Shown in pieces: positions 3-26,100 of a stretch of 32,000 nucleotides of DNA. A program made the translations under genes and the position numbers. The DNA is from Candidatus Saccharimonadota bacterium. Lineage in GTDB: Bacteria > Patescibacteriota > Microgenomatia > UBA1406 > GWC2-37-13. The stretch's first letter is position 1. Each line of letters opens with the position of its first letter. The stretch spans positions 660,001-692,000 of the forward strand of contig CP065004.1 of assembly GCA_016700135.1 (NCBI GenBank), read 5' to 3'. The notes beneath the pieces were generated by a model. It was given only the letters and a program-made list of their open reading frames with translations. It was not told the origin of the DNA and did not search any database.

Positions 3-3000
3 TTGTCTTCGAACGTTTCACTCCTGGGTCAGTCAATTGAGACAACAGAGATTACTGACGGAACGATCCTTCCCGTGGATATTAATTCCGGCGGAACGCC
101 CGCACAGAACGGATACTCGCTGATCTACAACAGTACTACTGAAACATTTGACTGGATATCACCGGCATCGTTGGGAATAAACTATTGGGCGCGTACCAGC
201 GGAGTACTTTCACCGGTCAATGCTGATGATGTGTTGAGTATTACAAGCAGTGTGACGACACCAATGTCACTCATAAATACAAGCGGTGGCGCATCATTTA
301 GAGTCGATGATCAGGCAGGGGATACTTCACCCTTTATTGTTGACAGTACAGGGAAAGTAGGAGTAGGAATGTCCACGCCCGTTCATAATTTGGATGTGGC
401 CGGGAAAATCGGTATCAATAATACGCAAATGATCTATTTGCCAAACCAGTCGGTTTTTACCGGATCATTGGTAATTGGAGACGGAGGTGGCTCTTTGACA
501 TATAGCACGGGGTCTGACGGACGTAATAATTTATTTGTCGGTATGGATGTCGGTAAATTTAATAGTACCGGTTATCATAATACGGTCTTGGGCCAACTCG
601 CCGGATATGCGATTACAACAGGAGGAAACAATACATTGGTCGGACGCGCGGCAGGAGCTACCCTTAATTCGGCGATTAATAATACTCTTTTGGGTACTGA
701 TGCCTCATTCCAGACGACCTCGGGAGGAGGAAATGTCGTCGTTGGTGCAGGTGCAAATTACAATAACCAGAGTGGTTCCAACAACGTCATTTTAGGATAC
801 CAGGCTGGATATGGTAACACGGTTCATAGTAAGACAGGAAATGTAATGATCGGCTATCGTGCAGGATATTTTGATAGCAATAACAATAAGCTCTATATAG
901 AAAACAGTAATGCTACGATGAATGATGCCCTCATCTACGGAGACTTCTCAACAGACCAAGTTACCATTAATGATTATCTCGGGGTCGGGAGAACAAATCC
1001 ACAGTATGCACTCGATGTAGTAGGAACGGGACGTTTTAGCGGAGATCTTCGGGTAACCGGAGCTTTTTGGGATAGTTTCAATGTGCAGGGAGCAACGGGA
1101 AATATTTTGACCAGTACTGAGACGGGGACGAGGTGGCTTGCGGCAAGTACGATTTTTGACGGGACTTACTTCAAACAGGACGGTAATAGCTTTACAGCTG
1201 ATGCAGTACTCGGGACCAACGATACCTTTGGCCTGGCATTAGAAACTGATGGTGCTACCCGTGTATATATTGATTCTGTTGGAAATGTTGGCATCGGAAC
1301 TACTGCTCCGGGAGACGAACTGGATGTTAACGGAGAGATAGATTCATCTACATTTTACAAATTGGAGAATGCAAAGATACTTGATGTCTATAATACAAGC
1401 TCATTAGCTTTAGGTCATGGTGCGGGAGCCTCCTTAACAAATCCTCAATATACGACCCTTATTGGGTATCAGGCGGGATACAATCTCACAGATGGATACT
1501 CAAATACGTTTATCGGAGCTTATGCAGGTTGGGACAACACCGGGGAATATAACACGTTTATCGGTAATGCTGCCGGACATGGGAATAGCTCACAAAACTA
1601 TTGGAACACTGCAATCGGTGACTCAGCGTTGTACTCTTTGGGGACGGGAGATGATCAAAATACGGCTTTAGGAATGGATGCTGGAGTCGATTTTGACGGT
1701 GGTGACAACAACGTATTTATTGGAGCGAATAGTGGCATAAGTGATGGGATGTCTAATTCTATTGTTCTGGGAACGAATGCCTGGGCGTACTCATCCAATC
1801 AATGGGTAGTTGGTGACGAAGCTGCCCCAATCAATAATGCTTTCTTTGGTGAAGGGGTATTCTCATCAACTCCGTCAGATATCACCATAAATGCAACAGG
1901 CGGTTCGGGATCTGATATTGATGGGGCCAACTTGATACTTGCAGGAGGAAAAGGAACGGGGAATGCAGCAGGAGGATACATTGCTTTTAGTACTTCAAAT
2001 GCAGGGTCTAGCGGATCCACTTCACAGACACTTACTGAGAAAATGAGATTAACTGCAGATGGGAGAGTAGGTATAGGTACAACTGCGCCGGGATCGAAGC
2101 TAAGTATCGATAGTTTGGGGACCGGGACAGGATCACCTCTCGTGATTGACTCAAGCGGAAACGTCTGGAAAGATACTTCTTCCCGCAAGTACAAGGTCAA
2201 CATCCAGCCGCTGAACACAGACTTCAGCAAAATACTGGATCTAAAACCGGTTTCATATGACTTCAAAGATACAGGAATGCACACGATCGGATACATTGCC
2301 GAAGAGGTAGATGCAGCAGGGTTGAAGGACCTGGTTGTATATGATACCGCCGGTCAGCCTGACGGTATCAAGTATGATCGTATGGCTATGTATCTGCTTG
2401 AGGTTGTGAAAGATCAGCAGAAGTCGATCAATGCACTAAAACAGGCTCAAATGACTCTGGATACCGAAGGTACCGTTGAAATGCCGTTGACTGAGGACAA
2501 TCAGCTTCCCACGACTGACTTTGAAAATATCGATATAAATGAAGAAGGCAATGAAGAATTCCTGGCTTTGCAGCATAAGGTTAATTATGAACTGACATCT
2601 GAAATTGCCGATATCAGAGGAAGCGTTGAGAGTCTGAAAACAGAGATGGAAAATATTCAAGAACAGGTTGATACAAACGGATTTGATAAAGTTGAGAACG
2701 CTCCATATATAGCTTCTCTTTCAGAAGAACTTCAGCGTCTTGCCGATGAAGTAACCGGACTTAAAACTGACTTCCTGACGGCATCAATTTCAGCGAATCT
2801 GTCAGGAATTGATACCGTCGTTTCTGATCTTACCGTCACGGGGAAAACAAATCTCTATGATGTAGGTGTGGTAGGAGATCTTGTAGCGGGCCTGGTCACA
2901 GTGGATGGTGTTGAAGCCAGCATTAATACGATCGGTGAACCTCTCAGACTTCAATCAGAAAAAATGGCAGACGTAGAATTTATGGGGGGACTGGTGCGTG

Positions 3001-3302
3001 TTACCAAAGAAGGAGACGTGCATATAGCAGGGGAAGTAAGTGCACAGAAGTTCGTAGTAAATACGGACGATCAACTCAATGCTTCTGCAGGAGAGGCGAT
3101 CATTCCTGCGGGTACGGACATTATTGAAATACAGACAGAGAGTGTCACGGAAGGATCTTTAATCTATGTGACCTTTACATCGGATTATACTCCCGCTACA
3201 AGGTACTGGGTAGAAAGCCGTAAGAAAGGGGAGTCCTTTATCCTCAAAACGGATAAAATCGTTGACAAAGCAAGCCAATTCTCCTGGTGGATTGTGAACT
3301 AA
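3..3302 (+). CDS. Giant fibre/adhesin-like surface protein; N-terminus lies outside the window (1099 aa visible)
   Basis: The ORF is open from the window edge. It has two blocks of short G/N-rich repeats (NNTLxG..AG..) resembling YadA-head/Hep_Hag-type beta-rolls, and recurrent VGIGTTAPGxxLDV motifs. An internal SSRKYK..LKPVSYDFKD..IGYIAEEV segment matches a peptidase-S74 intramolecular chaperone. This is followed by a heptad-like coiled-coil region and a C-terminal beta domain ending FSWWIVN, which resembles the C-terminus of 23152..28959. Confidence 0.8.
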   Translation: MSSNVSLLGQSIETTEITDGTILPVDINSGGTPAQNGYSLIYNSTTETFDWISPASLGINYWARTSGVLSPVNADDVLSITSSVTTPMSLINTSGGASFRVDDQAGDTSPFIVDSTGKVGVGMSTPVHNLDVAGKIGINNTQMIYLPNQSVFTGSLVIGDGGGSLTYSTGSDGRNNLFVGMDVGKFNSTGYHNTVLGQLAGYAITTGGNNTLVGRAAGATLNSAINNTLLGTDASFQTTSGGGNVVVGAGANYNNQSGSNNVILGYQAGYGNTVHSKTGNVMIGYRAGYFDSNNNKLYIENSNATMNDALIYGDFSTDQVTINDYLGVGRTNPQYALDVVGTGRFSGDLRVTGAFWDSFNVQGATGNILTSTETGTRWLAASTIFDGTYFKQDGNSFTADAVLGTNDTFGLALETDGATRVYIDSVGNVGIGTTAPGDELDVNGEIDSSTFYKLENAKILDVYNTSSLALGHGAGASLTNPQYTTLIGYQAGYNLTDGYSNTFIGAYAGWDNTGEYNTFIGNAAGHGNSSQNYWNTAIGDSALYSLGTGDDQNTALGMDAGVDFDGGDNNVFIGANSGISDGMSNSIVLGTNAWAYSSNQWVVGDEAAPINNAFFGEGVFSSTPSDITINATGGSGSDIDGANLILAGGKGTGNAAGGYIAFSTSNAGSSGSTSQTLTEKMRLTADGRVGIGTTAPGSKLSIDSLGTGTGSPLVIDSSGNVWKDTSSRKYKVNIQPLNTDFSKILDLKPVSYDFKDTGMHTIGYIAEEVDAAGLKDLVVYDTAGQPDGIKYDRMAMYLLEVVKDQQKSINALKQAQMTLDTEGTVEMPLTEDNQLPTTDFENIDINEEGNEEFLALQHKVNYELTSEIADIRGSVESLKTEMENIQEQVDTNGFDKVENAPYIASLSEELQRLADEVTGLKTDFLTASISANLSGIDTVVSDLTVTGKTNLYDVGVVGDLVAGLVTVDGVEASINTIGEPLRLQSEKMADVEFMGGLVRVTKEGDVHIAGEVSAQKFVVNTDDQLNASAGEAIIPAGTDIIEIQTESVTEGSLIYVTFTSDYTPATRYWVESRKKGESFILKTDKIVDKASQFSWWIVN
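2172..2450 (+). other. Peptidase S74 / endosialidase-type intramolecular chaperone auto-processing domain, internal to CDS 3..3302
   Basis: The sequence DTSSRKYKVNIQPL..ILDLKPVSYDFKD..HTIGYIAEEVD..DGIKYDRMAMYLLEVVKDQQKSINALK follows the remembered S74 pattern: S-x-R-x-K nucleophile region, L.PV.Y.(F/Y)K, IG(F/Y)IAqEv, then a terminal helix. Assigned from motif memory, not an HMM search. Confidence 0.6.
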
Positions 3303-5201: not shown

Positions 5202-6320
5202 TGAATAAGTTACGAAAGATATGGCACTCATAGGGAACTAACATCTATGAGTAAATGGGGAGGAGATCAGCTTCGAGTAATTAGGAGTTATGACTGGCAG
5301 TACAATAGAGATCTTATGAAAAAGATACGATCTCTATCAGACTACAATCAGTCAGATGTAGCACAAATCAGAAACGATGTTCTGACATTTGCAGAGAAGT
5401 ACGGGATACAAGCTGCAGTTGATGCATATGGGATATCACGAAGGACATTGTTTCGATGGAGGAAGAGACGGCGAGATTCAGAAGGGCAGTTGGATAGCCT
5501 GATACCAGAGACAACCAAGCCAAAGACACCCCGACGTATGGAGACTCACCCGAAGGTCATATCCTTTATCAAAGAGATTCGAGAACAATACTTTTGTTTG
5601 GGAAAGGAGAAGATCAAGCCCTTACTTGATGAGTATTGCCTACAGGAAGGAATTTCAACTATATCTGAGTCAACCATTGGAAAAGTGATCAAAAGACACA
5701 ACCTGCAGCGCAAGACCTACCGGATCTATCACAATCCAGCAAGTGGCTTTGCAAAACGGAAAGTAAAGTACCGACAGAAGGTCAAGCGGTCTCCCAAGGT
5801 GGAAGATACCGGATACATTGAGATTGATACCATCACGAAGTTTGTACACGGAATCAAGCTGTATGTCTTCAATGCAGTGGACATCAAACTCAAATTCCAG
5901 TTCTCCTACGGATACTCAAAACTCAACAGCCGAAACGGTGCTGATTTTATGAGAAGACTGGAACTAGTATACCCAATACAAGATGGTATAAAAACCATAC
6001 AAACAGATAACGGCCTCGAGTATCTGGGAAACTTCCATGACTATCTGGAAGAAAACAATATCCCACACCTCTTTATCTACCCCAGATGTCCCAAGATCAA
6101 TGCCTTTATTGAGCGAGCAAACAGAACACTCCAGGAAGAATTTATGAACCCCTACATCTATACCAAGTGGACCGGTATCGGATCATTCAATCGTCACCTT
6201 ATTGAATACCTCGTCTGGTACAATACAAAGCGAGTTCACAAAAGCCTGAACAATATTTCACCTATGGATTACCTATTATCTATTTTACCTAAAGAGTGCC
6301 ATATGTATGGAACTCATACA
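5202..6320 (+). mobile_element. IS481-family-like insertion sequence, copy 1 (1119 bp)
   Basis: Boundaries come from comparison with the inverted copy at 21862..22980. Ends are TGAATAAGTT.. and ..(rc)TGTATGAGTT, an imperfect IR of about 33 bp sharing a subterminal ATATGGCACTC. It is flanked by a 5-bp direct repeat AAGAG (5197..5201 and 6321..6325). It carries a single HTH+DDE(rve) ORF. Confidence 0.85.
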
Positions 6321-6329
6321 AAGAGATGA
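5247..6329 (+). CDS. IS481/IS3-like DDE transposase (HTH + integrase-core rve domain)
   Basis: The N-terminal region has a helix-turn-helix character (..GISRRTLFRWRKRR..). The DDE triad context is IEIDT.., QTDNGLEY.., FIERANRTLQEEF. The protein is identical to ORF 21826..22935 except for the last residues. The stop codon lies outside the element, in flanking DNA. Confidence 0.9.
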   Translation: MSKWGGDQLRVIRSYDWQYNRDLMKKIRSLSDYNQSDVAQIRNDVLTFAEKYGIQAAVDAYGISRRTLFRWRKRRRDSEGQLDSLIPETTKPKTPRRMETHPKVISFIKEIREQYFCLGKEKIKPLLDEYCLQEGISTISESTIGKVIKRHNLQRKTYRIYHNPASGFAKRKVKYRQKVKRSPKVEDTGYIEIDTITKFVHGIKLYVFNAVDIKLKFQFSYGYSKLNSRNGADFMRRLELVYPIQDGIKTIQTDNGLEYLGNFHDYLEENNIPHLFIYPRCPKINAFIERANRTLQEEFMNPYIYTKWTGIGSFNRHLIEYLVWYNTKRVHKSLNNISPMDYLLSILPKECHMYGTHTKR

Positions 6330-9845: not shown

Positions 9846-12476
9846 ATGGCAAAAAAATACCAACCTCAAACGTTTGAAAAACATTGGCAGGAGCAATGGG
9901 AGAAGGAAAAAACATATAAAGCTACTGCGAGCAAAAAGGATAAAAAATATATTCTGGACATGTTCCCGTATCCCTCAGGTGCAGGCCTTCATGTAGGGCA
10001 TCCCAGAGGATATACTGCTACGGATATTCTTTCACGATATTATCGGATGCAGGGATTCGATGTACTTCATCCGATGGGGTGGGATGCATTTGGACTCCCG
10101 GCGGAAAATGCAGCTATAAAGGCAAAAACTAATCCGAAAAAGCTAGTACCACAAAATATTGCAAACTTCAAAAGGCAAATGAAAATGCTGGGATTCTCAT
10201 ATGATTGGGATCGTGAGTTTGCGACAACTGATCCCGTATACTTCAAATGGACACAGTGGCTGTTTATTCAGTTCTTCCGCATGGGACTGTTATATAAAAA
10301 AAATACCCCGATAAATTATTGTCCCAGTTGCAAAACGGGTTTGGCAGAAGAAGAAGTTCTGCCTGACGGTACGCATGAAAGGTGCGGTAATCCGATTACT
10401 AAGAAAGATCTGCCGCAATGGATTTTCCGAATCACTAAATATGCAGATGAGCTTATTGATAGCCTTGATGGACTGAAATGGCCAAAAGGTATCCTTGAAA
10501 TGCAAAGAAACTGGATTGGGCGTAAAGAGGGAATTAACATCACTTACAAGATTGAAGGGACAAAAGAGTCGGTCACGTGTTTTACAACAAGGCCTGAAAC
10601 TAATTTTGGGGCAACCTTTATCGTAATTGCTCCTGAACATGAGTTGACCGGAAAAATTATTGACGGTTCTATTCAATCAGGAGAAATCACTGAAAAGGTG
10701 CGCACGGAGGTAGAGCGCTACGTGGCTCAGGCAAAAGCTAAAACTGAACTTGAGCGTATTTCTGAAGGAAGAAAAAAGACGGGTGCATTTACCGGGTTAT
10801 ATGCACTCAATAATCTGAACGGGAATAAGATTCCTTTGTGGGTTTCTGACTTTGTATTGAAGGATTTTGGCACGGGGGCGGTTGTCGGAGTTCCCGGGCA
10901 TGATTTACGGGACTTCGAGTTTGCGCAGGAGTTCAAGCTCCCAGTGTTAAGAGTAGTTGTTAGCAGCGATGGGGATACTTCGCCAATAAAAACAGCATCC
11001 CAAGTTCAGGAAGAAGATGGGAAAATGGTTAATTCTGAATTCCTTGACGGAATGGATATCCATAAAGCCAAAGCTCAAATCATGGATTATCTTGAGGAAA
11101 AAGGGTGGGGAGAAAAAGTCGTTTCTTATCATTTACGCGATTGGATTTTTTCACGACAGAGATACTGGGGAGAGCCTATCCCGATGGTCTATTGTGAGGT
11201 TTGTTCGAAGAATAAACGATCCGGACTTACATCAGAAGATCAAAATTTATCCGTTCGTGAAAAAAACGTAGAAGATAAGATTAATGGATGGAAGAGCGAG
11301 GTAGAGCCTTCAATGTACGGCTGGTATCCCATTAGTGCGAATGATCTTCCGTTGGATTTGCCGGATGTTGACAGTTATGAACCTCTCGAAAGCGGTGAGT
11401 CGCCACTTGCTGCAATCGACAGTTTTGTAAAAACAACCTGCCCGAACTGCGGAGCTGTTGCAAAGCGTGAAACTGACACAATGCCCAACTGGGCAGGTTC
11501 ATGCTGGTATTTCCTGTACTTTGCAAGCAGTGAAGTTTTAAATAAAAGTACTTTAGACACAGAACCCAATGCAGAAGAATGGCAAAAATTGATCGGAGAT
11601 GCTTCCCGACATTGGCTGCCGGTTGATTGGTATGTGGGTGGGGCGGAACATGCTGTATTGCACCTTCTGTACTCCAGGTTCTGGATGCATGCCATGTATG
11701 ATCTTGGGATTGTTGATGTACGTGAACCGTTTATGCGCTTAAGGAATGTAGGTATGATTTTAGCTGAGGATAATAGAAAAATGAGTAAATCATGGGGGAA
11801 TGTCATCAACCCCGATGACGTTGTGAGTGAATATGGGGCTGATAGTTTGAGGTTGTATGAAATGTTTATGGCGCCTTTTTCACAGGAAATAGCTTGGTCA
11901 ACCCGAACTCTACAGGGAACATATCGGTTTCTGAAAAGAGTCTGGGCCATGAGCCAGTTATATGCAAACGGAGATGCCCAAAATATGCCCGAGAACGAAG
12001 ATCTTAAGCGAAAGCTGCACCAGACCATTGACAAAGTTTCACGTGATATTCCTGACATAAAATTCAACACAGCAGTGGCGGCAATGATGGAATTTTTGAA
12101 TGAATGGGAAAAAACGTTTAACGTAAACAGAGAAACATTGGGAAAAGAAGACTTTAAGGCATTCTTAAAGATACTGGCACCGTTTGCTCCCTACATGACT
12201 GAAGAAATTTGGCACACAGTCTGTGGAGAAAAGACATCAATACATCTTGCAGTCTGGCCAGTTGCAGATACAGAATTCATTAAAAGCTCTGACGGAGAAA
12301 TTCCAGTACAGGTCAATGGTAAGGTCCGCACGATAATCAAAGTACCTAATGATTACGGACGTGAAAAAGTCCTTCAAGAAGCCCTAAAACATGAAAAAGT
12401 ACAAAAGTACGTGACAGCAGGTAAGTATAAGAAAGTAATATTTGTACCGGGCAAAATCTTAAATATTATTGTGTAA
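9846..12476 (+). CDS. leuS: Leucyl-tRNA synthetase (bacterial type)
   Basis: PYPSGAGLHVGHPRGY (HIGH), a Zn module CPSC..C, the CP1 editing domain (TTRPETNFGATF, GTGAVVGVPGHD), KMSKSWGN (KMSKS), and a C-terminal anticodon-binding/C-terminal domain. Confidence 0.95.
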   Translation: MAKKYQPQTFEKHWQEQWEKEKTYKATASKKDKKYILDMFPYPSGAGLHVGHPRGYTATDILSRYYRMQGFDVLHPMGWDAFGLPAENAAIKAKTNPKKLVPQNIANFKRQMKMLGFSYDWDREFATTDPVYFKWTQWLFIQFFRMGLLYKKNTPINYCPSCKTGLAEEEVLPDGTHERCGNPITKKDLPQWIFRITKYADELIDSLDGLKWPKGILEMQRNWIGRKEGINITYKIEGTKESVTCFTTRPETNFGATFIVIAPEHELTGKIIDGSIQSGEITEKVRTEVERYVAQAKAKTELERISEGRKKTGAFTGLYALNNLNGNKIPLWVSDFVLKDFGTGAVVGVPGHDLRDFEFAQEFKLPVLRVVVSSDGDTSPIKTASQVQEEDGKMVNSEFLDGMDIHKAKAQIMDYLEEKGWGEKVVSYHLRDWIFSRQRYWGEPIPMVYCEVCSKNKRSGLTSEDQNLSVREKNVEDKINGWKSEVEPSMYGWYPISANDLPLDLPDVDSYEPLESGESPLAAIDSFVKTTCPNCGAVAKRETDTMPNWAGSCWYFLYFASSEVLNKSTLDTEPNAEEWQKLIGDASRHWLPVDWYVGGAEHAVLHLLYSRFWMHAMYDLGIVDVREPFMRLRNVGMILAEDNRKMSKSWGNVINPDDVVSEYGADSLRLYEMFMAPFSQEIAWSTRTLQGTYRFLKRVWAMSQLYANGDAQNMPENEDLKRKLHQTIDKVSRDIPDIKFNTAVAAMMEFLNEWEKTFNVNRETLGKEDFKAFLKILAPFAPYMTEEIWHTVCGEKTSIHLAVWPVADTEFIKSSDGEIPVQVNGKVRTIIKVPNDYGREKVLQEALKHEKVQKYVTAGKYKKVIFVPGKILNIIV

Positions 12477-15643: not shown

Positions 15644-16358
15644 GGCTCTAGACTAGCAGAGTAGTGCTAAACTAGAGGTATGGTTTGTAACAATAGGCCG
15701 ATATCAAAATACAAGAGAAAAAAGATACTATGGTGTTTTGCACACGATCTGAGTGCTACACAGACCTCTGGTATTTTGGGTCTCAACCGCAATACAGTCA
15801 ACAAATATTACAATAATATTCGTCAACTCATATATCATCACCAAGTGCACCAGATGCAACGATATGTTGGTGGTGAGATAGAAATTGATGAATCATACTT
15901 TGGACCTCGAAGGATGAGAGGCAAGTCAAGTAAAAGAGGTCGTGGGACGTCATTTAAGCAGGTAGTATTTGGGATATATGAGCGTCAAGGACGTGTATTT
16001 ACTCGTATCATTCCAAACTGTAAAAGAAGAACGCTACATGCTGTTATGAAGGGAAAGATTGACTTGAACAGTACTGTATATTCAGATTCGTGGAGCGGAT
16101 ACAACGGACTTGTTGATGTCGGGTATGACAAACATTTGAGAATCAATCACAAGAAAAATGAGTTCTCAAATACAAAAGGGGTCCATATCAATGGCATAGA
16201 GTCATTCTGGTCCTTTTGTAAAAGACGTCTCGTTAAGTTCAATGGTGTAAAGAAAAACTTTCCATTACACTTGAAAGAGTGTGAATGGAGATGGAGCAAA
16301 TCCCCATCGATCCTTTACAATGAACTATTACAAATTGTTAATGTGCTAGTCTAGAGCC
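15644..16358 (+). mobile_element. IS1595-family (ISXO2/IS1016-like) insertion sequence, 715 bp
   Basis: Perfect 15-bp terminal inverted repeats GGCTCTAGACTAGCA (15644..15658 and the reverse complement of 16344..16358). It is flanked by a 7-bp direct repeat TTACTTT (15637..15643 and 16359..16365). It carries one transposase ORF. Confidence 0.85.
15680..16354 (+). CDS. ISXO2-like (IS1595 family) DDE transposase, 224 aa
   Basis: GEIEIDESYFGPRR..GRGTSFKQVVFGIYERQGRVF..VYSDSWSGY..HLRINHKKNEF..HINGIESFWSFCKRRL matches the DDE_Tnp_IS1595 pattern. AGAGG lies immediately upstream of the ATG. The stop lies within the right IR. Confidence 0.9.
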   Translation: MVCNNRPISKYKRKKILWCFAHDLSATQTSGILGLNRNTVNKYYNNIRQLIYHHQVHQMQRYVGGEIEIDESYFGPRRMRGKSSKRGRGTSFKQVVFGIYERQGRVFTRIIPNCKRRTLHAVMKGKIDLNSTVYSDSWSGYNGLVDVGYDKHLRINHKKNEFSNTKGVHINGIESFWSFCKRRLVKFNGVKKNFPLHLKECEWRWSKSPSILYNELLQIVNVLV

Positions 16359-18275: not shown

Positions 18276-18305
18276 TTGAAACACACCTGTTTTTGTATCT
18301 ATACT
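18276..18305 (+). promoter_or_regulatory. Sigma70-like promoter of 18327..21164: -35 TTGAAA, 18-bp spacer, -10 TATACT
   Basis: TTGAAA is at 18276..18281 and TATACT at 18300..18305. The ATG is at 18327, with no obvious SD. Confidence 0.4.
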
Positions 18306-18326
18306 GAACTAACGCACTCTGTTCGT

Positions 18327-21164
18327 ATGTTAAACAAAATTGAACAAATAATAAAGAATTGCATATCTGGAAAGGTAATATCCAGATTGTTGACAGTCAT
18401 AATACTGGCAGTCTTTTTTATTGGTTTTATCTTCTTATCAATCCAAACCGTAAGTGCTGCACCGGGTATCCGACAGACAATCAACTTTCAAGGAAAACTT
18501 GTGGACGATGAAGGATTAAATGTTGCGGACAGTACATACAGCATTATATTTACGCTGTATGACGCGTCATCAGGCGGCTCGCAGCTGTGGCAGGAGACCC
18601 GATCAGTTGCTACCAGTGATGGTATTTTCCGTGAAGAACTTGGCACCAGTACAAGTTTGTCTTCTGTTGATTTTAATAGCGATAGCATCTATTTAGGAAT
18701 TAAGGTTGGGGCTGACGCAGAAATGACTCCTCGTGTCAGGTTTACCGCAACACCTTATGCATTCCAGGCACAAAATGTCCCGTGGAGCGGCCTGCAAGAT
18801 GCAGCTGCAAATCTCGCAGTATCTATGGGGTCATATACTTCTGCGTTTACCTACGGGAACAGTACTGGAGCAAATGATCTCTTCAAGCTCGCCGATACGT
18901 CAAGCAATTCCGGGACAGGCAAACTTCTGTCAATTCAAACAGCATCGGGATCATCCGTAAAGCCTTTCCATGTATCTTCTGCCGGAGTAGAAGCAATTTT
19001 GGTTGATGCAAGCGGAAATATCGGAATCGGGACAACCAATCCCTCCCGCAAACTTGATATAAACGGAACTGTGCGTATGCGTGGACAGCTGTATGATTAC
19101 AACGATTCTGTCGGTACCCCGGGACAAGTACTTTCGACCACAGCAACTGGCGTAGAGTGGATCGATGCATCCGGTGTCGGAACTGATGATCAGACACTTG
19201 CAGAAGTGTATGCAGAGGCAGGAAACAGTGTGCAGTTGACAGCAGGGTCAGGAGATATCCGCTTCTACAGAGGAACCAATACTGAGATGCTCTTTTTGGA
19301 TGAAAGCAGTGGGAATGTGGGAGTGGGGACTACGAATCCGAGTATTGGAAAACTTCAAGTTTCTGGAAATATTTATTCTGCTGGTACTATGCAAGTTGTC
19401 AATTCATCAAATAATGGGCTGACGAATCGAGGTTTTGTATTATCACCAGCAGACTATAACGGTGAGAGTACATTTACAGCATGGGGGAATTCAGGAGGAA
19501 CTACTGTCTTTGGCGCTCGAAATACCGGGAGCGGTAACATTACCGCTCAGTTATCTTTTGAACCGGGAGCGGGAATTGTTCGAATTTCGACGGGTACAAC
19601 GTCACCTTCAGAACGAATGAGAATTAATGCATCAGGAGACGTGGGAATCGGTACGACAAATCCGGGGTACAAACTGGATGTGAATGGAGATATCCGGATT
19701 GCAAACGGGAGTGAGTTGTATAGTTATGGATCTGCCACTCTGGGAGACAGGTCATATACAACACCCAGTTATGTGACATCAGGTCAGACTTTCACTGCCT
19801 CGATACAGGCGCTTGATGATGCAGTGGAAGGGGTCATTTCCGGCTCAGGTGGGGTATGGTCGAGAGATTCAGGGAACGGATATCTCTATCCTCAGACGCT
19901 GACAGACAGCGTGGGAATCGGGACATCGACACCTTCAGAAAAATTACATGTGGTAGGGAATATCTTGGCGACAGGAAATATTGTCGGCTCTACACTGTCA
20001 GATGGTACGCTCAGTATTACGGCAGGGAACATTACCGGAGCGGGAAATATTACGGCCGGAGGCATCATTACCGGTACGGGATCAGGGTTGACAGGACTCA
20101 ATGCAAGCAACCTTGCATCAGGCACTGTACCGTCTGCACGTATTTCTGGCAATTACCTCGGTATCACAGGAGTCGGGACAATCACAAGCGGTACCTGGCA
20201 GGGAAGTGTTATTTCTTCTACATATTTGGACACTGCAGTAATCCTTGCCACTGAGATTGATACATCAGCAGAGCTTGCAGGGATCATCGGAGACGAGACA
20301 GGTTCAGGAGCACTGGTATTTGCAAACTCACCGACGTTTGCAGGGAATGTGCTTTTTCCGGGATCCGGAATCTGGGAGTCAACAGGAGATGTGGGAATCG
20401 GTACTACCAATCCAGGATACAAGCTTGATGTAAATGGGGATGTACGTATAGCAAGCGGCAGTGAGCTCTACAGTTACGGTTCGGCCACACTGGGGAATCG
20501 ATCATATACTACACCGACATATGTGGCAAGCGGACAGACATTCACGGCATCAATCCAGGCACTTGATGATGCGGTGGAGGGAGTTATCTCAGGTTCAGGA
20601 GGAGTCTGGTCACGGAATGCGGGGAGCGGATACCTTTTCCCTCAGACATTGACTGACAGTGTAGGTATAGGCACGTCAGTTCCTTCGGAGAAATTGCATG
20701 TCATCGGTAATGCAATCATTTCGGGGAATATCACGTCGGGCGGTATCATTACCGGTACGGGATCAGGGCTCACGGGATTGAATGCCTCAAATCTTGCATC
20801 AGGTACGGTACCTTCTGCACGAATCAGTGGCAATTATTCAGGAATCACGGGAGTAGGGACCATTACGAGCGGGACATGGCAGGGAAGTGTGATCAGTTCG
20901 ACTTATCTTGATCCGGCAGTTATTTTATCTACAGAAATTGACACATCTGCAGAACTTGCCGGAATCATCGGAGATGAGACAGGATCAGGAGCATTGGTAT
21001 TTGCAAATTCACCGGCACTTGTGACACCGAACATCGGAGCAGCAACAGGAACATCCTTAAATGTCACAGGAGCAATTACGGCAGGAGGAATTATCACCGG
21101 TACAGGATCAGGTTTATCTCATCTCAATGCTTCAACTCCCGATAGAGACAGTCGTCCGAAATAA
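18327..21164 (+). CDS. Giant modular fibre/adhesin-like surface protein (about 945 aa), apparently lacking the C-terminal module set of its relatives
   Basis: The ATG at 18327 is followed by a TM/signal (LLTVIILAVFFIGFIFLSIQTVSA). The N-terminal INFQGKL.D..G.....Y...F.LYD...GG..LWQE domain is typical of tail-fibre-like proteins. It has GIGTTNP..KLD(V/I)NG motifs and a tandem repeat of about 250 aa. It ends abruptly within a third repeat copy (..GGIITGTGSGLSHLNAS-TPDRDSRPK stop) and overlaps the convergent gene by 46 nt. Confidence 0.8.
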   Translation: MLNKIEQIIKNCISGKVISRLLTVIILAVFFIGFIFLSIQTVSAAPGIRQTINFQGKLVDDEGLNVADSTYSIIFTLYDASSGGSQLWQETRSVATSDGIFREELGTSTSLSSVDFNSDSIYLGIKVGADAEMTPRVRFTATPYAFQAQNVPWSGLQDAAANLAVSMGSYTSAFTYGNSTGANDLFKLADTSSNSGTGKLLSIQTASGSSVKPFHVSSAGVEAILVDASGNIGIGTTNPSRKLDINGTVRMRGQLYDYNDSVGTPGQVLSTTATGVEWIDASGVGTDDQTLAEVYAEAGNSVQLTAGSGDIRFYRGTNTEMLFLDESSGNVGVGTTNPSIGKLQVSGNIYSAGTMQVVNSSNNGLTNRGFVLSPADYNGESTFTAWGNSGGTTVFGARNTGSGNITAQLSFEPGAGIVRISTGTTSPSERMRINASGDVGIGTTNPGYKLDVNGDIRIANGSELYSYGSATLGDRSYTTPSYVTSGQTFTASIQALDDAVEGVISGSGGVWSRDSGNGYLYPQTLTDSVGIGTSTPSEKLHVVGNILATGNIVGSTLSDGTLSITAGNITGAGNITAGGIITGTGSGLTGLNASNLASGTVPSARISGNYLGITGVGTITSGTWQGSVISSTYLDTAVILATEIDTSAELAGIIGDETGSGALVFANSPTFAGNVLFPGSGIWESTGDVGIGTTNPGYKLDVNGDVRIASGSELYSYGSATLGNRSYTTPTYVASGQTFTASIQALDDAVEGVISGSGGVWSRNAGSGYLFPQTLTDSVGIGTSVPSEKLHVIGNAIISGNITSGGIITGTGSGLTGLNASNLASGTVPSARISGNYSGITGVGTITSGTWQGSVISSTYLDPAVILSTEIDTSAELAGIIGDETGSGALVFANSPALVTPNIGAATGTSLNVTGAITAGGIITGTGSGLSHLNASTPDRDSRPK
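19635..21134 (+). repeat. In-frame tandem repeat inside CDS 18327..21164: unit of about 750 bp, two copies plus a truncated third
   Basis: GDVGIGTTNPGYKLDVNGD(I/V)RIA(N/S)GSELYSYGSATLG.RSYTTP.YV.SGQTFTASIQALDDAVEGVISGSGGVWSR... begins at 19635 and again at 20385. A third GGIITGTGSGL start at 21084 is cut short. The copies are highly similar in protein but heavily diverged at synonymous sites. Confidence 0.85.
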
Positions 21165-21829
21165 CTCAAACTCATAAAGATCGTTATAAGAATGAGGACC
21201 GCACCGGTGGCAAACCTAATGAGAGATGCGGTCGTAAAAAAATTTGCGGTATTGGATGACCCACCTGATTGAGTGCCTGCAGCGGAAGGATTATTGTCGT
21301 TTGTAGGCCGGACGACCACGCGAATTTTACTGATGACCTGTTCATTATCAGCAGCTTCCTGCACATCCACGTCCTCTGCAGCAGTACCGAGGACCGGGCC
21401 TGCACCCGTTGCCTTCATGCCGACTCCTTCCCAGGGAGACGATGTTATGTAGTCTCCTTTTTTGATGGGACCGTTTGCCAATGATACCCAGACAGATGCT
21501 TCACCGCTTGTTGCAAGGGGATAGGTTCCTTCAGCATCTCCTGTATTCAACTCAATTGCAGGATTTTCCGTCACCACACCAATAATGTTCTTCTGATATG
21601 CTTCGGTTGTCACCACGTACCCTTCATCGGTTGTGGCAATAATATATCCGTCTAGTACTGAATCTCCGTCGATAGGTACTCGTGTGCTGAATCCGAAAGA
21701 AGTATTCTGCGCATTTACAATTATTACGTCAGGAAAAAATACATGGAAAAGAGCTAAAAGAATACCTATCAAAAATATGTACGGACGTATTATTTTAAAA
21801 ATTAGCCCATTTTGATACATAAATTTCAT
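21119..21829 (-). CDS. Small membrane protein carrying the GDYITSS..GVGMKAT module; paralogue of 31162..31959, C-terminally shorter
   Basis: I chose the start at MKFMYQNG.. (ATG 21829), because the upstream MPYVWNSY.. residues are encoded by the IS end. It has an N-terminal TM/signal (IFLIGILLALFHVFF). The module is ..NIIGVVTENPAIEL..TYPLATSGEASVWVSLANGPIKKGDYITSSPWEGVGMKATGAGPVLGTAAED. It has one C-terminal hydrophobic helix and ends at ..GVEALR, where the paralogue continues. Confidence 0.7.
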   Translation of the reverse strand: MKFMYQNGLIFKIIRPYIFLIGILLALFHVFFPDVIIVNAQNTSFGFSTRVPIDGDSVLDGYIIATTDEGYVVTTEAYQKNIIGVVTENPAIELNTGDAEGTYPLATSGEASVWVSLANGPIKKGDYITSSPWEGVGMKATGAGPVLGTAAEDVDVQEAADNEQVISKIRVVVRPTNDNNPSAAGTQSGGSSNTANFFTTASLIRFATGAVLILITIFMSLSYFGRLSLSGVEALR

Positions 21830-22935
21830 TCTAGTATAAATCCGAAAAGAAGTATAGGTCTTGTATGAGTTCCATACATATGGCACTCTTTAGGTAAAAT
21901 AGATAATAGGTAATCCATAGGTGAAATATTGTTCAGGCTTTTGTGAACTCGCTTTGTATTGTACCAGACGAGGTATTCAATAAGGTGACGATTGAATGAT
22001 CCGATACCGGTCCACTTGGTATAGATGTAGGGGTTCATAAATTCTTCCTGGAGTGTTCTGTTTGCTCGCTCAATAAAGGCATTGATCTTGGGACATCTGG
22101 GGTAGATAAAGAGGTGTGGGATATTGTTTTCTTCCAGATAGTCATGGAAGTTTCCCAGATACTCGAGGCCGTTATCTGTTTGTATGGTTTTTATACCATC
22201 TTGTATTGGGTATACTAGTTCCAGTCTTCTCATAAAATCAGCACCGTTTCGGCTGTTGAGTTTTGAGTATCCGTAGGAGAACTGGAATTTGAGTTTGATG
22301 TCCACTGCATTGAAGACATACAGCTTGATTCCGTGTACAAACTTCGTGATGGTATCAATCTCAATGTATCCGGTATCTTCCACCTTGGGAGACCGCTTGA
22401 CCTTCTGTCGGTACTTTACTTTCCGTTTTGCAAAGCCACTTGCTGGATTGTGATAGATCCGGTAGGTCTTGCGCTGCAGGTTGTGTCTTTTGATCACTTT
22501 TCCAATGGTTGACTCAGATATAGTTGAAATTCCTTCCTGTAGGCAATACTCATCAAGTAAGGGCTTGATCTTCTCCTTTCCCAAACAAAAGTATTGTTCT
22601 CGAATCTCTTTGATAAAGGATATGACCTTCGGGTGAGTCTCCATACGTCGGGGTGTCTTTGGCTTGGTTGTCTCTGGTATCAGGCTATCCAACTGCCCTT
22701 CTGAATCTCGCCGTCTCTTCCTCCATCGAAACAATGTCCTTCGTGATATCCCATATGCATCAACTGCAGCTTGTATCCCGTACTTCTCTGCAAATGTCAG
22801 AACATCGTTTCTGATTTGTGCTACATCTGACTGATTGTAGTCTGATAGAGATCGTATCTTTTTCATAAGATCTCTATTGTACTGCCAGTCATAACTCCTA
22901 ATTACTCGAAGCTGATCTCCTCCCCATTTACTCAT
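21826..22935 (-). CDS. IS481/IS3-like DDE transposase, copy 2 (369 aa; C-terminal tail encoded by flanking DNA)
   Basis: It matches ORF 5247..6329 through ..CHMYGTHT, then diverges (RPILLFGFILE versus KR) because the ORF runs out of the element. Its TGA stop (21828..21826) overlaps the ATG (21829..21827) of the downstream gene. Confidence 0.9.
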   Translation of the reverse strand: MSKWGGDQLRVIRSYDWQYNRDLMKKIRSLSDYNQSDVAQIRNDVLTFAEKYGIQAAVDAYGISRRTLFRWRKRRRDSEGQLDSLIPETTKPKTPRRMETHPKVISFIKEIREQYFCLGKEKIKPLLDEYCLQEGISTISESTIGKVIKRHNLQRKTYRIYHNPASGFAKRKVKYRQKVKRSPKVEDTGYIEIDTITKFVHGIKLYVFNAVDIKLKFQFSYGYSKLNSRNGADFMRRLELVYPIQDGIKTIQTDNGLEYLGNFHDYLEENNIPHLFIYPRCPKINAFIERANRTLQEEFMNPYIYTKWTGIGSFNRHLIEYLVWYNTKRVHKSLNNISPMDYLLSILPKECHMYGTHTRPILLFGFILE

Positions 22936-22980
22936 AGATGTTAGTTCCCTATGAGTGCCATATCTTTCGTAACTTATTCA
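21862..22980 (-). mobile_element. IS481-family-like insertion sequence, copy 2 (1119 bp, inverted relative to copy 1)
   Basis: It is the reverse complement of 5202..6320. All stretches I compared by eye were identical, and the encoded proteins are identical. It is flanked by its own 5-bp direct repeat GGTCT (21857..21861 and 22981..22985). Confidence 0.85.
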
Positions 22981-23151
22981 GGTCTTCTTGCAAAATACCA
23001 CATATAAATTTCTAAATGAGCAATATAAAAAATGTCTTCATAAATTGATAATTGAATATATATGTTCAATAAAATAGTTCAAAATAACTTCCTTCTTAAT
23101 ATATATATTGCAACGTCTACAAAATTATGTAATACTGAATTTGTAGAGGGT

Positions 23152-26100
23152 ATGAAAAAATTCCGGAAATTTATCATCGCAATCATAGTTATTGCAGTGT
23201 TTACTGTGTTATCCCTCTTTGCCTTCACGTACTACTCCCGTGCGGAATCGCCGATTATCTTCATCTCACAGCTGCTGCCAATGACCCGGGAGGGGTTGAC
23301 TGCTACAGAGAGAGTTATCGAGACCAGGAATCTTCCGAATCCAACGTTTTTGTCAGAACCTGATTTATTGACAGATGCCACCCTTGAAATCAATTTACCG
23401 GCTTTATTTTCAGCTCCCGTGGTATTTCTGGAAGATATCACGGCACCCAATATCCTCTACAGCCTTGATGCGGGTGACGGAATTGAGCTTTCAGGAGATC
23501 CTCAATCTCCGACAATTACCAATACGGGAGTCATTTCACTTGAGGGAGTAAATGGAGCTATTGAGCTTCAGAGTGATAATATCCGAATCAGCACATCCGG
23601 GAATACGATCACCCTGAGCGCAGACATACCTGCCCCTGACATTCAAAAACTGACGGAATCCGATATTGAGGCATTTATCTTTGATGCCGATAATACCGGG
23701 ACGCTTAGTTCGGGAACACTGTCACTGGATGAACTTTCCTACACAGGGACGATTCCTTCTGCAATTGTTGTAGGTGAGTATAGCGATATAACAGGAGTAG
23801 GAACTATTACAAGCGGTACCTGGCAGGGGAGCGTCATCAGTTCAACATATCTTGATCCGGCAGTGATACTTTCAACTGAAATTGATACATACACAGAACT
23901 AAACACAATTGTAGCGGACGTGACACTTACTCACAATGGACTGATCGATACCTCAGCAGAGATAGCGGGTATTGTCGGAGATGAGACGGGATCAGGAGCA
24001 TTGGTATTTGCAAATTCTCCGACGTTTGCAGGGAATGTGCTGTTTCCGGGGTCCGGTATATGGGAAAGCACAGGAGATGTCGGTATTGGAACGACCAACC
24101 CCAGTGCCAAGCTTGAGGTTGCAGGTCAGGTCAAGATCACGGGAGGATCACCGGGAGCAAATAAGGTACTCACTTCCGATGCAAGCGGTCTTGCTACATG
24201 GCAGACATTGGGTGCAGCTAGTATCGGTGATGATTCTCTAGACTTTGATAAATTTTCAGACAATATGACGCTTGATGCAAAGACAATCATCAATCAGGCA
24301 GGGTTTGATTTCGGTTTCCAAGGGACAGGAAATGTGGGTATTGGGACAAGTACTCCTTCTGAAAAGCTCCATGTTATCGGCAATGCAATCATTTCAGGGA
24401 ACATCACGTCGGGTGGGATCATTACGGGGACAGGATCAGGATTGACAGGACTCAATGCAAGTAACCTTGCATCAGGTACAGTCCCTTCCGCACGGATCTC
24501 GGGTAATTATTCAGGGATCACAGGAGTCGGAACAATCACTAGCGGAACATGGCAAGGCAGTGTCATTTCCTCAACGTATCTTGATCCGGCAGTGATACTT
24601 TCAACTGAAATTGATACATACACAGAACTAAACACAATTGTAGCGGACGTGACACTTACTCACAATGGACTGATCGATACCTCAGCAGAGATAGCGGGTA
24701 TTGTCGGAGATGAGACGGGATCAGGAGCATTGGTATTTGCAAATTCTCCGACGTTTGCAGGGAATGTGCTGTTTCCGGGGTCCGGTATATGGGAAAGCAC
24801 AGGAGATGTCGGTATTGGAACGACGAGTCCTGGGTATAAACTTCACCTCTCCGGTACGGCGACTACTACGATGGTAGAAAACACAAGTGCGAGTAGCTAT
24901 TCTTACTATTCCATGCAAAACGATACAGGATTCAATGCGGGATTGTTATTCGCAGGCTCGACCTATGCAGGTTACGGAGGTGCGAACTCGTTGAGCATAT
25001 TGAATGGGCACAGCGACGGTAACATTTCAATCTTTGCCGGAGGAACCACAGCGGCTAATGAACGCGTCAGAATAACTTCCTCTGGCAATCTTGGGATCGG
25101 CACAAGCTCTCCAAGCCGTAGACTCCATGTTGATGCAGCTGCCGATGGATGGTCAGCACGGATTCAAAACGATAACGGATATATTGATTTTGGACCAAAT
25201 AATACAGAAGGTGCTCATATCTATACTGATCGTCCTCAATTTTACTTTAATCAAAAATTGAATATCATCACAAATGATATAACTTCTTACAATGGTGACT
25301 TTACATTGCAGCGAGCAGGTACAACAAGGCTTACATTGGGGTCGTCAACATCTACATTTGCAACACCTCTTAATGTCAATACAGGAACATACACAATATC
25401 CTTGGAGGGTAGAAACACATGGGATACCGGCGGCGCGACTCAGTACCCTGTCATCCGGAGTAGCAGCTCGAATGAGCGGGTCATGTTCCACAATATTCAT
25501 GTTCCATATATGCAGAATGGCCAAGGTGGATATACAGGCACTACTACAGGGGCGATTATTCGTTTTGCCAGCAATTATACATCCCCAACATCCTGGGATG
25601 TCGGTATCGATTCTGATTTGGGTACAGACACGTTCGGAATAAGTAGAGGAACAAGCAATTTCTTAAGCATCGCTAACAATGGAACCGTGACCATCCCAGG
25701 TACGCTAATGATAAATGGAGCTGAAGCTGCAAGTTTGAAAACACATAATGCAACAGTGACAGATGGCTGGTATCGTATTGCAAGTGACGGGCCTACGAGC
25801 GATGGAGGAACAGGTGGGCATACAGCCTACGGAAGGTTTGTAGTATGGTCATATGAGTCGGATAGGCATTGTCAGGCAGAGTTCACTGCAGGATATGATT
25901 ATAGTCGTTCTGCTACTTCTCCAACTGTTATTCTCAATAGTAACAACTGTTATAACGGTACCGATACTCCAATCACGGCTATACGAGCAGTTGCAGGAGA
26001 CGCGTACGAGGGGGCAGCGGTAGAAGTCTACATTGATGTTACCACTAGTGCAAGTGTAGGATATCAAATATATGATGAGGCAAATGCTAGTCCTGCAACC

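Follow-up and report, generated by a model that had tools for sequence, protein, structure and literature searches.

How can copies of a repeat stay almost identical as protein while their DNA drifts to near saturation at synonymous sites, and does such divergence of the DNA call for a selective explanation of its own? The question is raised by a stretch of 32,000 nucleotides (the window) from the chromosome of a member of Candidatus Roizmanbacteria, within the Candidate Phyla Radiation (Patescibacteria, abbreviated CPR). Two of its genes, here called C and D, encode repeat-rich proteins resembling phage tail fibers, and a systematic diagonal search of C and D resolved their repeats into three sub-modules, Z, X, and Y, each bounded by the motif VGIGT(T/S)xP (Table 1). 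An earlier reading of this DNA, the original prediction, had described five copies of a module distributed over two giant genes, conserved at the protein level while almost maximally recoded, and had offered two explanations: purifying selection acting very strongly on the module, or selection for nucleotide divergence that protects direct repeats from recombinational collapse. Three of the five copies are indeed full (C1, C2, and D2), but two are only partial (D1 and the truncated third copy in C); likewise, D is a giant gene with its 1935 codons, whereas C, with 945–962, is not. The best explanation, to which a probability of about three in four is assigned, is that the copies are old duplicates held by strong purifying selection. 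Direct support exists for the pattern itself, for the age of the copies relative to the split between sister species, for an amino acid divergence lower than elsewhere in the proteins, and for the lack of any sign that recoding was selected.

Protein conservation and nucleotide divergence of the modules

The pattern is clearest in module X. When the copy at 20661-20945 in gene C is aligned with that at 24334-24618 in gene D, 53 of the 95 codons differ and a single difference changes the amino acid (V/T), exactly as had been counted by hand in the original prediction; the two carry 66 nucleotide differences, corresponding to a DNA identity of 76.8%. The reported exchanges between the serine codon families TCN and AGY (four switches) and between the leucine codons TTG and CTC are present in this pair as well. 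The same pattern recurs in the other copies, as had also been proposed, with all C–C and C–D pairs showing 91–100% protein and 75–83% DNA identity. The two Z copies within gene C (19635-19952 versus 20385-20702) are 91% identical in amino acids and 75% in nucleotides, and 68 of their 106 codons differ. The X core together with the start of Y, again compared within gene C (20043-20333 versus 20724-21014), stands at 96% and 78%, X of C1 against D2 (20043-20264 versus 24397-24618) at 95% and 79%, and Y between the two genes (20256-20426 versus 23944-24102 and 24673-24843) at 95–96% and 81–82%. The truncated third X copy matches the other X copies at 18–19 of its 25 residues, yet at only 6–10 of its 25 codons.

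Estimates of the synonymous distance (dS) between module copies are correspondingly large: 0.9–2.0 by NG86, 1.1–2.8 by LWL85, and from 2.3 to an unbounded >20 by maximum likelihood (ML). For the diverged pairs, omega (dN/dS) is 0.000–0.016 by ML and 0.007–0.065 by NG86 and LWL85, the latter range being inflated because these methods treat exchanges between the serine families as passing through non-synonymous steps. Two further mechanisms were considered and set aside. A diversity-generating retroelement would produce mainly amino-acid-changing substitutions at template adenines, whereas of the 53 codons that differ, all but one (52) are synonymous in the fiber frame, and fourfold sites show every kind of change, with 18 transitions and 16 transversions. 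A constraint imposed by an overlapping gene is likewise rejected, nearly all differences being synonymous in that frame. Among the open reading frames (ORFs) of the window, none was found that encodes a reverse transcriptase.

Age of the copies

How far the copies have moved toward saturation can be read from codon identity at conserved residues, for which codons drawn independently according to the usage of these genes give a saturation expectation of 0.32–0.36 (SD ~0.05). Between the copies, this identity is 0.39–0.52. Only the Z pair beginning at 19635 and 20385 lies within 1 SD of full saturation (0.39 versus 0.34 expected). The description "almost maximally recoded" is therefore right insofar as the copies are near saturation, but slightly overstated, as most pairs are not fully saturated and none goes beyond.

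A yardstick for age is provided by two sister species (L023 and L025), whose leucyl-tRNA synthetase (LeuRS) is 84–85% identical in amino acids to that of the window and which have kept synteny around its gene. Measured in the same way between the window and these species, codon identity is 0.54–0.55 for LeuRS, 0.54 for two neighboring genes, and 0.43–0.65 (mostly 0.47–0.55) for other single-copy genes, the between-species values as a whole falling mostly at 0.47–0.58; in the non-module parts of gene C and of its paralog A, it is 0.47–0.49. Set against this range, the lower values between module copies mean that the copies are as old as, or older than, the split between the sister species. The three X copies are, furthermore, equidistant from one another at synonymous sites, with 10, 11, and 13 codons shared by the three possible pairs, 21 the same in all copies, and 15 different in all. 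C–C and C–D pairs are no more alike in DNA than orthologous copies are between species, so that the excess of similarity within a genome by which concerted evolution is recognized is found solely in one tract of gene D, 23848-24095 versus 24577-24824.

This tract lies within a mosaic. Over the segment 23788-24096, aligned with 24517-24825, the first 20 codons (23788-23847) are identical in amino acids but synonymously saturated, and 248 bp of perfect identity then follow, which mark a recent duplication or a gene-conversion tract. Recombination between these 248-bp repeats would delete or duplicate exactly 243 amino acids of the shaft, a possible route to length variation. Homologous proteins extend the range of ages further. 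A 3857-residue homolog (P0362; L028:501-12074; GCA_026004575.1, BPJK01000001.1) from a genome of 60% GC contains ~30 matches to the X–Y unit, and its internal repeats, up to ~1000 amino acids long, are 98–100% identical in DNA, the opposite extreme to the window. In a 3202-residue Roizmanbacteria protein (P0257), repeats 87–96% identical in amino acids have codon identities of 0.44–0.77. Module copies within the genome of the window span 57–100% identity continuously, those of P0242, a further fiber paralog of the genome under study, being among the more diverged (57–68%). The family thus shows a full spectrum of repeat ages, with the window at its old end. Birth-and-death evolution is recognized by just this combination, namely high synonymous with low non-synonymous divergence and copies of all ages, here from the recent 248-bp tract to the truncated third X.

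Constraint on the module protein

Against this background of age, the protein has changed little. Amino acid divergence is 1% between the X copies of C2 and D2, 4–5% in the other X and Y pairs, and 9% in Z, whereas LeuRS, at a synonymous divergence no greater than that of the modules, has diverged by 16%, and the fibers outside the modules by ~19%. Binomial P values for the modules against this 16–19% run from 5e-8 (20661/24334) to 5e-3 for the weakest pair. The first of the two proposed explanations, in which purifying selection on the module is very strong, is thus supported, and conservation of the module protein is exceptional relative to the rest of the fiber proteins. Neither of the outcomes that the original prediction had named as refuting it was observed. 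The ratio dN/dS is about 0.003–0.02 and lowest for module X, where it is unusually low; otherwise, the pattern is ordinary in kind.

Comparison across genomes adds independent evidence for this constraint over a range of distances. In the gene C ortholog of sister species L023, Z is followed by X in the same order, and the module is 90% identical in amino acids to C2 with a codon identity of 0.48. A different Roizmanbacteria protein, P0257, includes three copies of Z, which share 82%, 82%, and 70% identity with those of the window. The sub-motifs LNASNLASGTVPSARISGxYxGITGVGT and IDTSAELAGIIGDETGSGALVFAxSP are 70–85% identical in proteins from other phyla, and the 170-residue X–Y unit as a whole matches 2204 cluster representatives (E <= 1e-3), some of which contain at least 30 matches per protein. 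Outside close relatives, the nearest modules are 55–68% identical among the matches scanned, and a scan of GTDB together with a pattern scan of metagenomes returned only distant module carriers. Searches of Pfam and NCBIfam and a profile search of PDB returned no family or structure for the module.

What, then, might hold the protein so nearly constant? In tail-fiber-like proteins, the conserved part is normally the shaft, not the tip. Since the modules are placed in the stalk of such proteins, the premise that they are exposed repeats becomes doubtful; by analogy, X, Y, and Z would instead be shaft modules of a trimer, most of whose residues are constrained. The history that best accommodates these observations would be one in which shafts are assembled from this small, motif-delimited set of modules and in which duplication and the shuffling of modules gave rise to copies of unequal age, that is, by birth and death. 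Synonymous sites would then have drifted near saturation with the protein held almost constant by purifying selection, presumably because nearly all residues of an interdigitated trimeric shaft repeat are structurally constrained. Low DNA identity would be a passive outcome of age, and DNA-identical copies would also be made and tolerated.

Nucleotide divergence and recombination

The second explanation in the original prediction holds that the synonymous differences were themselves favored as a safeguard of direct repeats against RecA-dependent deletion or gene conversion. The geometry of the locus is compatible with such a role, since the copies are direct repeats 0.7–4.6 kb apart and no diverged pair contains an identical run longer than 24 nucleotides (nts). 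About 24 nts is close to the minimal length for efficient homologous recombination; because no longer identical run is left, the old copies would no longer recombine. No sign of such selection was seen, however. Codon identity between copies is never under neutral saturation; the longest identical runs (14–24 nts) are of the length given by shuffling of the codons that differ (P(sim <= obs) = 0.65–0.95); and single-copy genes attain similar synonymous divergence between the sister species. Pairs of modules within one gene and pairs in different genes are equally diverged, and each copy has the codon usage and third-position GC content (GC3) that are usual in this genome. Perfect repeats, moreover, persist: D retains its 248-bp direct repeat, and homologous proteins retain DNA-identical repeats, as in P0362. 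Selection for nucleotide divergence as a protection of direct repeats accordingly finds no support, and it is regarded as highly improbable.

Serine codon switches and competing histories

The account in terms of old duplicates and purifying selection does not fit every observation equally well, and the serine codons are a case in point. Switches between the TCN and AGY families lie entirely on the C2 branch, with 4 of 15 serines switched between C2 and D2, 3 of 12 between C1 and C2, and none of 9 between C1 and D2, compared to 11 of 307 between orthologs (2 of 204 in non-fiber genes and 9 of 103 in fiber parts). Replacements between serine and threonine number only about one in the modules, yet in orthologs they are five times commoner than switches (54 versus 11). 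The excess would fit if C2 had split off very early, with threonine as a short-lived intermediate, and C2 (20724-20945) also carries most of the synonymous codon changes that involve two or three nucleotides. Drift, however, explains the excess only if the C2 split is far older than the synonymous sites show, and so deep a split sits uneasily with the 99% identity between C2 and D2 and with the differences seen in an X fragment of L023: C2 and D2 differ at one of 95 residues, as opposed to 3–4 of 41–42 against that fragment. The latter contrast is based on small counts, is not significant (P ~0.08, an estimate), and involves an L023 copy of uncertain orthology. The structural reason proposed for the constraint is a further soft spot, as an AlphaFold2 monomer model of the 251-residue C2 unit is extended and of low confidence (pLDDT 58, pTM 0.22) and the module has no PDB homolog. 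As to the serine switches, so few cases do not suffice for a rejection of the simple model.

Could the copies have diverged in different lineages (strains or species), to be joined later by recombination or horizontal transfer of fiber cassettes? Synonymous divergence would then have accrued between genomes, with the protein identity again accounted for by purifying selection. Such mosaic import would account for the abrupt module borders, where 99% identical protein stands beside unalignable flanks, for the star-like relation of the X copies, and for the concentration of multi-step codon changes on C2 alone. Exchange among fiber genes is also suggested by their 5′ ends: the N-terminal 235 residues of A and D are 99% identical, and the 5′ end of D with ~55 nts upstream is nearly identical to the A ortholog of another species. 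But the codon usage and GC3 of all copies are indistinguishable from those of host genes, and no donor-like sequence nearer than 55–68% was present among the matches scanned. The orthologous gene C of L023, furthermore, already has Z followed by X, and the arrangement therefore predates the species split. Import from elsewhere is consequently considered unlikely.

A different proposal starts from the protein. If the fibers co-assemble, or share an anchor, a chaperone, or a glycosylation partner, homogeneity of the module within a genome could itself be selected, and paralogs may then change in parallel, for example from threonine to serine, with one copy taking the TCN route and another the AGY route. 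The serine switches do occur at positions that have threonine or asparagine in homologs, as independent routes from threonine to serine would give, serine–threonine replacements are deficient relative to switches, and C2 and D2 are 99% identical even though the X fragment from the other species differs by 7–10%. If true, this would amount to protein-level concerted evolution without homogenization of the DNA, and would explain both the C2–D2 identity despite the serine switches and the scarcity of serine–threonine differences. The counts are, however, small and not significant. An early impression that copies within a genome are generally more alike than orthologs has largely been withdrawn, because the sequence used (L004) proved to be the ortholog of P0242 and not of C; the same comparison shows the P0242 modules to be ~95% conserved across species. 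The wide range of identities among copies within one genome, 57–100%, likewise implies that no general homogeneity is imposed. Selected homogeneity is thus judged improbable.

Finally, relatives' short-read assemblies break inside the modules, the L023 contig ending in X (at 19149) and the L004 contig starting in Y (at 1), and one may ask whether the window itself is an artifact of assembly or annotation, with strain variants stitched into one contig. Its source is a single contig of 1,448,136 bp, however, in which reading frames run unbroken for 2.9 and 5.8 kb and the flanks of the copies are distinct and non-allelic, and the same proteins are present in NCBI; the chance of an artifact is close to negligible. 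Old duplication followed by strong purifying selection remains the preferred explanation.

The fiber genes and their surroundings

Genes A, C, and D belong together with a fourth paralog located elsewhere in the genome (P0242). The gene C product and that of A match PHROG tail fiber families (2.8e-14 for C), and searches of PDB connect D to 8ond_A (Bd2133; E = 1.5e-15) and to 8ol4_A (1.6e-4), and C to 8ol4_A (5.6e-5). These two PDB entries are mosaic adhesive trimer (MAT) fibers, and the matches to them span GNVGIGT...KL.V units, not modules X or Y. The profile NF053851 (Bdello_MAT_N) gives a weak match to residues 54–129 of C (E = 2.2e-4; 21.1 bits, the curated cut-off being 60) and none in D or A. 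By analogy, A, C, D, and the fourth paralog are inferred to form a family of phage-tail-fiber-like surface fibers, similar to the MAT fibers of Bdellovibrio and presumably trimeric as they are. The C-termini of the family differ: the chaperone domain Peptidase_S74 (PF13884) is found in A (E = 2.9e-9) and P0242 (2.1e-17) and is absent from C and D at E <= 0.01, D having an end of non-S74 type and C being probably truncated.

Gene C may start at MLNKIEQ (nt 18327) rather than at the TTG that opens its ORF, and the alternative start matches a 945-residue library protein (P0361). It contains Z, X, and Y twice each and then ends within the third copy of X, with no C-terminal tip or chaperone domain, and is probably a 3′-truncated fiber gene. 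At this end, the third X module (…GGIITGTGSGLSHLNAS) is followed by TPDRDSRPK*, and a convergent gene shares its 3′ end with the last 46 nts of C. Truncation by an inversion between the two copies of a 1120-bp insertion sequence (IS) in the window was ruled out, as both copies keep intact 4-bp target duplications (AGAG and GGTC). The syntenic ortholog of C in the sister species is a fragment, L023:17716-19149. The N-terminus of D, which it shares with A, is 95.5% identical to the A ortholog noted above (window 23062-23860 versus L025:388-1180), and the ~55 non-coding nts upstream of D (TATATATATTGCAACGTCTACAAAATTATGTAATACTGAA…GTAGAGGGTATGAA) are almost invariant between species. From these sequences, the invariant segment and shared N-terminus suggest either a conserved promoter or 5′ leader, or an exchange of 5′ ends between fiber genes.

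Table 1. Fiber genes, module copies, and other features of the window (coordinates are window positions)
Feature	Coordinates	Strand	Remarks
Gene A, fiber paralog	3-3302		Full length 1453 aa (P0243); 5′ end upstream of the window
Gene C, tail-fiber-like surface protein	18276-21164	+	ORF of 962 aa from TTG
Gene D, fiber protein of 1935 aa	23152-28959	+	NCBI hypothetical protein IPM65_03660, Candidatus Roizmanbacteria (P0241, 100% identity)
Module Z, copy C1 (DVGIGTTNPGYKLDVNGD...QTLTDSVGIGTS)	19635-19952	+
Module Z, copy C2	20385-20702	+
Module X, copy C1	19911-20264	+	23-codon insertion relative to C2 and D2; core aligned from 20043
Module X, copy C2	20661-20945	+	Reference copy of the original prediction
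Third X copy in C, truncated (GAITAGGIITGTGSGLSHLNAS)	21069-21143	+	Frame then enters unrelated sequence and stops
Module Y, copy C1 (DTSAELAGIIGDETGSGALVFANSPTFAGNVLFPGSGIWESTGDVGIGTT)	20256-20426	+
Module Y variant, copy C2	20937-21068	+	First 26 codons conserved, then the ...PALVTPNIGAATGTSLNVTG form common in other phyla
D1	23788-24102	+	End of X (23788-23889, 34 codons), 21-aa YTELNTIVADVTLTHNGLIDT insert, Y (23944-24102)
D2	24334-24843	+	Full X (24334-24618), insert, Y (24673-24843)
Perfect 248-bp direct repeat within D	23848-24095 = 24577-24824	+	Offset 729 bp, in frame
LeuRS	9846-12476		Neighbor of the fiber genes
IS, two copies of 1120 bp, rve-integrase transposase	5202-6321; 21861-22980	+; -	100% identical, inverted relative to each other
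IS1595/ISXO2-like transposase ORF	15680-16354	+	PF12762, E = 1.7e-27; upstream of gene C
Small predicted membrane protein, ~236 aa	21119-21829	-	Hydrophobic N- and C-termini

The window is chromosomal DNA of Candidatus Roizmanbacteria; its LeuRS matches, at 100% identity, a protein recorded in NCBI for this organism. Around the fiber genes lie other housekeeping genes, for transketolase, a class I tRNA synthetase of Trp/Tyr type, an M16 peptidase, and a prepilin peptidase, as well as mobile elements; the fiber genes are chromosomal, situated amid housekeeping genes and not within a prophage. One of the two 1120-bp IS copies, that on the minus strand, is located between C and D, and the IS1595/ISXO2-like element makes a third mobile element within 32 kb of a small CPR genome. 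The small membrane protein shares a domain of ~100 residues with residues 1460–1559 of D (43% identity, E = 5e-16; NGPI+.GDYITSS..GVGMKAT), for which no Pfam family was found.

Relation to known systems and significance

The closest known parallel is provided by the MAT proteins of Bdellovibrio bacteriovorus, which are trimeric, phage-like surface fibers with mosaic adhesive tips (Caulton et al., 2024, PMC10769870; PDB 8OND, 8OL4, 8ONF). Both are multi-gene families of phage-tail-fiber-like proteins in a bacterium living on other bacteria, and both combine a signal or anchor N-terminus with repeats of the unit (S/T)GNVGIGTTxPxxKLxV and C-terminal parts of mosaic build, a Peptidase_S74 end being present in some members (here A and P0242) and lacking in others (D). 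Unlike the MAT proteins, those of the window come from a different phylum, and nothing in the MAT fragments of solved structure corresponds to their X, Y, and Z modules; their trimer formation, surface location, and adhesion are predicted by analogy. Phage tail fibers with an S74 chaperone (PF13884), such as the L-shaped tail fiber of T5 and the K1F endosialidase, are comparable through the S74 domain of A and P0242, through the PHROG matches, and in having a conserved shaft with variable distal parts. In contrast to these, the genes described here are chromosomal and belong to no prophage, and C and D are without S74.

With respect to the mode of evolution, the nearest relatives of this pattern are found in polyubiquitin and histone families, where near-identical protein repeats likewise combine high synonymous divergence with copies of mixed age and pose the same question of purifying selection versus concerted evolution. 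For polyubiquitin, Nei and colleagues proposed birth and death with strong purifying selection, a view that is still debated (PMC10457151). The repeats of the window differ from both in being sub-domains of bacterial structural fibers, with a conservation that is restricted by lineage and not universal. Classical tandem repeats of bacterial surface proteins, in turn, are homogenized in their DNA, through concerted evolution by unequal crossing-over or conversion. Here, the same kind of protein and even the same module family include such a case (P0362, with more than 30 module matches), and the copies of the window, save for the 248-bp tract, are its opposite.

The window thus offers a clean, quantified bacterial case of protein-identical repeats with near-saturated synonymous sites, and indicates that such a pattern in a surface fiber requires no special recoding mechanism. 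It also bears on how these genes are found. The fiber genes are intact only in long-read assemblies, and because short-read contigs of relatives break within the modules, the family is under-represented in protein databases and close relatives are hard to find; partial fiber genes from the short-read contigs of the sister species appear to be missing from protein collections. To our knowledge, the means by which CPR bacteria attach to host cells are largely unknown. In this setting, the modules described here constitute a widespread putative shaft element without a Pfam family, present up to ~30 times per protein, in tail-fiber- and MAT-like surface fibers of CPR bacteria.

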